Source: a virus
Taxonomy: Duplodnaviria; Heunggongvirae; Uroviricota; Caudoviricetes
Strand: one strand, 5' to 3'
Length of the DNA: 22,209 bases
Virus record (IMG/VR): IMGVR_UViG_2526164633_000039
Notes under the pieces: generated by a model
Told to the model about the DNA's origin: nothing
Seen by the model: the letters and a program-made list of their open reading frames with translations, nothing else
Databases searched by the model: none
Made by a program: the position numbers and the translations under genes
In this document: piece after piece, positions 17,754 to 17,783 of the stretch
Layout: each line of letters begins with the position of its first letter
Numbering within the stretch: position 1 is the stretch's first letter

Positions 17754-17783
17754 CAAAAAAAGCCCGCGCTGGGAGACGCGGGC
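17754..17783 (-). terminator. Minus-strand intrinsic terminator (GCCCGCG-N8-CGCGGGC plus 7-8 U)
   Basis: Read on the minus strand: GCCCGCGTCTCCCAGCGCGGGCTTTTTTT. No plus-strand T-run follows the same hairpin. Confidence 0.5.

Follow-up and report, generated by a model that had tools for sequence, protein, structure and literature searches.

Between a moron and a conserved phage ORF, at least eight prophages of E. coli O157:H7 Sakai carry "convergent sRNAs" (Tree et al. 2014, PMC4104026). Table S2 of that paper lists, for the prophage Sp4, EcOnc05(+), EcOnc08(-) and EcOnc21(-). Minus-strand Hfq-CRAC peaks were reported for EcOnc08 and EcOnc21 in Sp4 and for EcOnc42 in Sp15, which is the Stx1 phage, EcOnc42 being its name for the counterpart of EcOnc21 (PMC4104026). 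The three were grouped as homologues and gave a Northern band of ~271 nt; their RNA was bound by Hfq in five of five CRAC data sets, with a signal 7- to 25-fold below that of AgvB, AsxR or EcOnc03 (PMC4104026). Reviews give the targets of EcOnc08/21/42 as unknown, we found no later paper in the literature assigning them a function, and no Rfam model of them exists. Two other sRNAs of the same slot, AsxR and AgvB, adjust how the host takes up haem and amino acids, and the start site of AsxR has been mapped by RLM-RACE. SNPs in EcOnc27, a partner sRNA, are among the predictors of haemolytic uraemic syndrome.

The window (the whole stretch of 22,209 nucleotides which was analysed) is the late-regulatory region of a lambdoid E. 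coli prophage, and we collected its relevant features in Table 1. Positions 17490-18020 are ~99% identical to Sp4 of E. coli O157:H7 Sakai, and the Sp4 copy of the minus-strand hairpin studied here differs from ours by one loop base. After mapping of the coordinates, the EcOnc08 peak falls on 17757-17829 and the EcOnc21/EcOnc42 peaks fall on about 17835-17920; the genome-version offset in this mapping (0 at Sp4, +136 at Sp5 and Sp15) was set from the probe positions, the AsxR position and a polyadenylated EcOnc5 read. The published Northern probe for EcOnc08/21/42 is identical to the plus-strand sequence 17829-17863, which means that it detects a minus-strand RNA, while the EcOnc05 probe matches exactly at 17622-17656, inside STnc100. 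Strand, position and terminator of EcOnc08/EcOnc21 (Sp4) and of EcOnc42 (Sp15) agree with the feature of the window, nothing material being different, and both sequence identity and probe match place this feature with EcOnc08/21/42. We concluded, with a probability of roughly 85%, that the hairpin is the Rho-independent terminator and the 3' Hfq-binding module of EcOnc08/21/42, the leftward half of the convergent sRNA pair which lambdoid and Stx prophages have between nanS-p and the moron slot, the latter being occupied by tRNAs and/or stx; STnc100/EcOnc05 is the rightward half.

Table 1. Features of the late-regulatory region of the window (feature; position; strand; details)
Q-like antiterminator	15002-15568	(+)	
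DNA methyltransferase	16140-17198	(+)	
Phage tRNA trio	17239-17488	(+)	
sRNA STnc100 (EcOnc05)	17564-17754	(+)	RF02076, 139 bits against a gathering score of 47; terminator hairpin 17724-17743
Intrinsic terminator	17755-17783	(-)	Stem 17783-17777 with 17768-17762; loop UCUCCCAG; U7 at 17761-17755
Predicted short sRNA (EcOnc08 proper, ~70 nt)	17755-17824	(-)	CRAC peak 17757-17829; covariance model R1, 103.7 bits
Candidate alternative short species, 82-nt 3' fragment	from 17836	(-)	If made by RNase E cleavage
Conserved 5' core CUUCACGUUUU	about 17811-17801	(-)	Conservation across relatives
Predicted sigma-70 promoter P2	17830-17859	(-)	-35 TTGCGC 17859-17854; 18-nt spacer; -10 TATTAT 17835-17830
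Upstream Hfq-binding segment of the long isoform (EcOnc21 in Sp4, EcOnc42 in Sp15)	17835-17920	(-)	Holds the probe site 17829-17863
Terminator-like hairpin CUGCGC-AAUA-GCGCGG, then CCUUUUU	17852-17872	(+)	Complement carries the P2 -35 element
Promoter-like site P1, ATGCCA-17-GATAAT	17955-17983	(-)	Predicted start ~17948, 194-nt RNA
nanS-p, sialate O-acetylesterase	17977-19839	(+)	DUF1737, SASA, DUF6645; conserved phage gene right of the sRNA pair
Holin	after nanS-p	(+)	

The hairpin, which reads GCCCGCG-UCUCCCAG-CGCGGGC then UUUUUUU from 17783 to 17755 on the minus strand, has a folding free energy of -16.9 kcal/mol, and it combines a GC-rich stem, a short loop and a U run directly 3' as an intrinsic terminator does. 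In a consensus scan it came out on top of 24 terminator-like sites, with T7 and 8 pairs of which 7 are G-C; its pairing comprises 7 G-C pairs and one U-G pair around a loop of 6-8 nt. When terminators are defined strictly (at least 7 perfect pairs, at least 6 of them G-C, a loop of 3-8 and at least T6), it is the only site of the whole 22-kb window, and not a single such site occurred in 300 dinucleotide-preserving shuffles of the window. Hence the strong minus-strand intrinsic terminator announced in an earlier note on this DNA is borne out, and so is the remark that no annotated minus-strand gene feeds it, since PGAP leaves the stretch from STnc100 to nanS-p empty. The STnc100 terminator hairpin and the one studied here are 11 nt apart and tail-to-tail, a layout to be expected between two convergent genes.

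Fragments of the RNA itself are found in the RNase E-CLASH data. The EcOnc8 fragments listed in Table EV7 of Waters et al. 2017 are equivalent to 17813-17795, 17802-17759, 17806-17776 and 17795-17776 of the window. The fragment equivalent to 17802-17759 crosses the hairpin and enters the U tract, so that RNA 3' ends near the U tract are given by this fragment, ending at 17759, and by the edge of the CRAC peak at 17757. These data, obtained from nearly identical loci, indicate that a leftward RNA ends at the hairpin and binds Hfq. Taken together, the near-identical Sp4 locus and the CRAC, Northern and CLASH results point to the terminator as the place where a known Hfq-bound sRNA of the minus strand ends. 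This supports the proposal of the earlier note that a leftward small or antisense RNA ends here; the inference was right, but the RNA was already known, as it has been in the literature since 2014.

Further upstream, the EcOnc21 and EcOnc42 CLASH fragments begin at 17836 and at about 17945-17947 (Waters et al. 2017). Two independent reads, one from Sp4 and one from Sp15, start exactly at 17836 and run across the -10 element of P2, which shows that a transcript longer than the one predicted from P2 exists. The TTG(CGC) and TA..AT positions of P2 are invariant, 18 nt apart, in 27 distinct loci, and this also holds for loci which lack nanS-p and have unrelated DNA further upstream. Judging from the promoter elements, transcription from P2 would start at ~17824 and yield an RNA of ~70 nt, in agreement with the position of the EcOnc08 CRAC peak. 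As the published Northern probe lies upstream of this predicted start, the short form would be invisible to it.

The search for promoters on the minus strand which the earlier note had proposed as a check gives, with relaxed scans, promoter-like starts at ~17986, ~17948 and ~17823. The start at ~17986 belongs to a second upstream promoter-like site, CTGACG-18-CATCAT, which predicts an RNA of 232 nt. P1, with its start at ~17948, overlaps the ribosome-binding site and the start codon of nanS-p on the other strand, so its conservation is uninformative when taken alone; the two CLASH fragments which begin at ~17945-17947, near the P1 start, are only suggestive. None of the starts found by the relaxed scans fits the Northern size: the predicted lengths are 70, 194 and 232 nt, to be compared with ~271 nt, a value which, if accurate, would put the 5' end ~50 nt inside nanS-p. 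The long isoform spans at least 17945-17755, and the ribosome-binding site of nanS-p is at 17968-17979. The earlier note had the leftward transcript arise within about 200 bp upstream of nanS-p. Such an RNA is known from the near-identical loci; the 5' end of its long form stands differently according to the promoters (194 or 232 nt) and to the Northern blot (~271 nt, inside nanS-p).

The following scheme would account for these observations. Termination would leave a GC hairpin with an oligo-U tail, which would bind the proximal face of Hfq. At least two isoforms would be made. The long one would start at or to the right of ~17948 and be antisense to the nanS-p leader. The 3' species of 70-82 nt would come either from P2 (TTGCGC-N18-TATTAT, start ~17824) or from RNase E cleavage between GG and AUAUU at 17836, where the two independent CLASH reads begin. 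This short species may act in trans through the conserved single-stranded core CUUCACGUUUU, on mRNAs or as a sponge, by analogy with AsxR and AgvB. It can be expected that the sRNA is present in the lysogen, while Q-dependent late transcription is off and no Q-modified polymerases sweep the region. The best-conserved unpaired stretch of the sRNA is the 5' core, CUUCACGU(UUU), and in one CLASH read the core CUUCACGUUUU is ligated to a complementary stretch of the yodD mRNA, AAAACGUGAGGU. Each of the CLASH hybrids found is a single read and statistically weak, and thus none of them establishes a target.

The main role could instead be in cis. According to this explanation, the long isoform would pair as an antisense RNA with the leader of nanS-p, perhaps also with the ribosome-binding site and the first codons; nanS-p and the downstream lysis genes would be silenced in the lysogen by transcriptional interference or by cleavage of the duplex by RNase III, and the terminator would just keep the antisense RNA out of STnc100, the tRNAs or stx. 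A long minus-strand RNA does exist (the ~271-nt Northern band obtained with the 17829-17863 probe, the CLASH starts at ~17945 and 17836), the promoter-like sites P1 and P0 overlap the start region of nanS-p, and a length of 271 nt, if accurate, takes the 5' end ~50 nt into the gene. However, the module from promoter to terminator is kept in loci without nanS-p, in which a holin or unrelated DNA follows (L009, L115, L124); AsxR and AgvB, in the same slot, act in trans; pairing in trans is also what the unpaired conserved core and the binding of Hfq suggest; and the conservation of P1 by itself says nothing. A purely cis-antisense role is possible for the long isoform, but we consider it rather unlikely that the main role lies there.

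To see how the hairpin evolves, we gathered 141 loci from viral and genome collections, using the invariant core of STnc100 as an anchor. After the STnc100 terminator the slot holds several alleles: the type of the window (GCCCGCG/CGCGGGC), the POCJ13 type (CCGCUC/GAGCGG), smaller variants, and the AsxR/AgvB/EcOnc03 type (GCCCGA/UCGGGC). All of them form a stable hairpin with a free energy between -10.5 and -20 kcal/mol and a run of 4 to 9 U behind it; in the AgvB type and in L103 the first A/U of this run takes part in the pairing, so that 4-5 U are left. Our own covariance model, built from 12 variants of the window type, reaches 103.7 bits on 17755-17824 of the window and also finds the POCJ13 type, with 31 bits. 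In an alignment of 17 distinct sequences, 96.6% of the cells are paired and three pairs are changed on both sides, figures which must be read with the caveat that the alignment was fitted to the covariance model. None of 500 shuffles reached the covariation score, and slid controls pair at 33-51%. This shows that the hairpin is under structural selection. The sRNA module is present in 992 of 5,426 complete E. coli genomes (~18%), in 1,442 copies, often several per genome, and the annotation of the 100-bp module is "none" in every RefSeq genome listed.

Two side observations were made on these alleles. In five viral contigs (L019, L026, L033, L046, L089) two STnc100 cores stand in tandem, 484 bp apart, and the leftward terminator comes only after the second. 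In L002 and L006 (Stx1 phage, Sakai Sp15), a C-to-A change at the equivalent of window position 17780 breaks one pair of the stem, the free energy of this copy being -10.5 kcal/mol as compared to -16.9 kcal/mol in the window. Termination may be leakier in the Stx1 phage through this change, which could contribute to the long Northern band.

One could also suppose that the hairpin is an insulator, or the leftover terminator of a lost moron gene, that it would halt stray antisense transcription, and that the RNAs are functionless by-products. The literature gives neither a function nor a target for EcOnc08/21/42, and the Hfq-CRAC signal is modest. Against this, diverged loci keep, along with the hairpin, an 11-nt core and a promoter whose spacing is fixed. 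Compensatory changes are seen in the stem, Hfq bound the RNA in all five CRAC data sets, and proven regulators occupy the same slot in sister phages. This makes the insulator explanation very unlikely.

The assignment to EcOnc08/21/42 raises the question of how these RNAs are related to AsxR and AgvB. The prophage anti-sRNAs AsxR (RF02703), AgvB (RF02702) and EcOnc03 occupy the same slot in the same orientation as EcOnc08, convergent with STnc100, between the moron and nanS-p; the feature of the window likewise faces an STnc100-type sRNA in convergent orientation, lies downstream of PR' in the moron slot and has its own promoter just upstream. In 933W this slot holds AsxR (RF02703, 88 bits), directly abutting STnc100 and convergent with it, and the arrangement of STnc100 followed by a leftward terminator comes after stx1B in Stx1 phages and after stx2B in 933W. 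The AsxR promoter, TTGCGC-18-TAAAAT, has the layout of P2 (TTGCGC, an 18-nt spacer, a -10 element). AsxR, AgvB and EcOnc03 share with EcOnc08 the motif UAUyyCwUGC, a GC hairpin, an oligo-U tail and Hfq binding. In contrast, the stem and loop of AsxR and AgvB differ from those of EcOnc08, their 5' region is unrelated to its own, and EcOnc08 is predicted to be 70-82 nt long, with a longer isoform besides, as compared to 51-60 nt for AsxR and AgvB. With respect to the length of 51-60 nt and the conserved 3' region of ~42 nt which characterize that family, EcOnc08 falls outside, sharing only the 10-nt motif and the architecture of a hairpin plus U.

The covariance models agree with this separation. 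The Rfam models of AsxR and AgvB gave no match to 17480-20300 of the window at E<=10, and our own model of EcOnc08 did not recover AsxR or AgvB at significant E-values. On the minus strand, at gathering score and at E<=10, Rfam gave no family but only chance terminator look-alikes, for instance anti-hemB and suhB. Hence, on the strength of the failed AsxR/AgvB models and of the length, we filed EcOnc08 as a positional and architectural paralogue and not as a member of the family; and since both Rfam and our own model fail, the case for homology to the anti-sRNA family is made by its position, the layout of its promoter and a short motif. HnrS (EcOnc10/11/12) was also considered as an identity and rejected: it is a different sRNA. 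The OOP RNA of phage lambda resembles EcOnc08 in being short, in opposing a neighbouring operon and in ending at an intrinsic terminator. Unlike EcOnc08, however, it is found in the cII-O region and has the cII mRNA as its cis target, and it is unrelated in sequence and position.

In the 5' core of the sRNA, UUACUUCACGU (minus strand, 17814-17804) is identical over 11 nt to nucleotides 40-50 of the catabolite-repression sRNA Spot 42, with p ~0.002 for a single comparison, which is not significant when ~100 known sRNAs are allowed for. A bolder idea would make EcOnc08 a third diverged allele class of the anti-sRNA cassette, in which the promoter and terminator frame of AsxR/AgvB carries a different seed; through its conserved core, UUACUUCACGU, the phage RNA would copy part of Spot 42 and rewire host carbon or sialic-acid metabolism from a gene beside nanS-p. 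We would give little credence to this idea.

We finally turn to the plus strand. The partner of the pair, STnc100 (RF02076; EcOnc05, EcOnc27, sRNA103, related to PasD), is prophage-borne and Hfq-bound and has its own terminator like EcOnc08, from which it differs in being an unrelated structured RNA of ~190 nt on the opposite strand. A CLASH read of EcOnc5 ends with GGGGCUUUCU then a poly(A) tail, at the equivalent of ~17746-17747 on the plus strand; this means that the 3' end of the STnc100 RNA is at 17746-17747 and that it is polyadenylated in vivo. The U tract of STnc100, UUCUUAU, is weak. Next to it, the hairpin studied here can form in plus-strand RNA as well, 11 nt past that of STnc100, and one may thus imagine that it is a plus-strand element, which would either stop read-through from STnc100 and the tRNAs as a bidirectional terminator or serve to stabilise or process the late mRNA. 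A bidirectional terminator has a U tract on both strands. The plus-strand 3' flank of the hairpin, GGCAAGGAAT, has none, and neither has the sequence after the hairpin on this strand, GGCAAGGAAU, so the hairpin is one-directional. This contradicts the possibility, mentioned in the earlier note, that it functions only as a bidirectional terminator, and that explanation was rejected. Moreover, the upstream A run and all the variants are oriented for the minus strand, the STnc100 3' end is read at ~17746-17747, ahead of the hairpin, and a separate plus-strand hairpin with T5 is available at 17852-17872. A plus-strand role is therefore highly improbable.

The weakest explanation, a small mRNA for an ORF of 43 aa (17978-17847), has in its favour that the ORF is ATG-initiated and lies upstream of the terminator, but we rejected it as extremely unlikely because relatives carry frameshifts, namely 1-2-nt indels in close relatives (L008, L039/L043/L050, L061), its ATG being moreover that of the palindromic CATG of the nanS-p start codon, without a Shine-Dalgarno sequence, and its start lying upstream of the predicted starts of P1 and P2.

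As to what it all means, the sRNA of this hairpin lies directly 3' of stx1 in Stx1 phages and is yet missing from the RefSeq annotation and from Rfam. The gene model (terminator, conserved promoter, conserved pairing core, two isoforms) would make the RNA annotatable and testable. The discovery value beyond Tree et al. 2014 (PMC4104026) is little; what is added to that paper is the gene model, two candidate ways of making the short form, classes of alleles whose stems carry compensatory changes, and the fact that the probe is blind to the short form.

Some observations were made on the neighbouring DNA. The plus-strand hairpin at 17852-17872 is kept in all relatives, and the homology of 933W to the window starts exactly there; in lysogens, this hairpin may keep transcription that comes from the tRNAs and STnc100 from reaching nanS-p and the lysis genes. 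Another strong plus-strand hairpin, with U7, lies at 19922-19956, between nanS-p and the holin, and has no match to any Rfam family. The PasA/PasC sRNAs have been placed in the nanS-p/holin slot (Zhu, Shabalina and Storz, bioRxiv 2026). Two copies of an IS66-family element, at 11612-14230 and 20602-22209, are 94-97% identical over at least 1.2 kb; the second, cut by the end of the window, comes directly after ydfR (20210-20554), inside the lysis cassette, so that the prophage is probably defective for lysis. The same prophage also carries the DicF sRNA at 4422-4473 on the minus strand (76.7 bits) and a hok/sok locus, whose sok antitoxin RNA (116 bits) is encoded at 9734-9908 on the plus strand.
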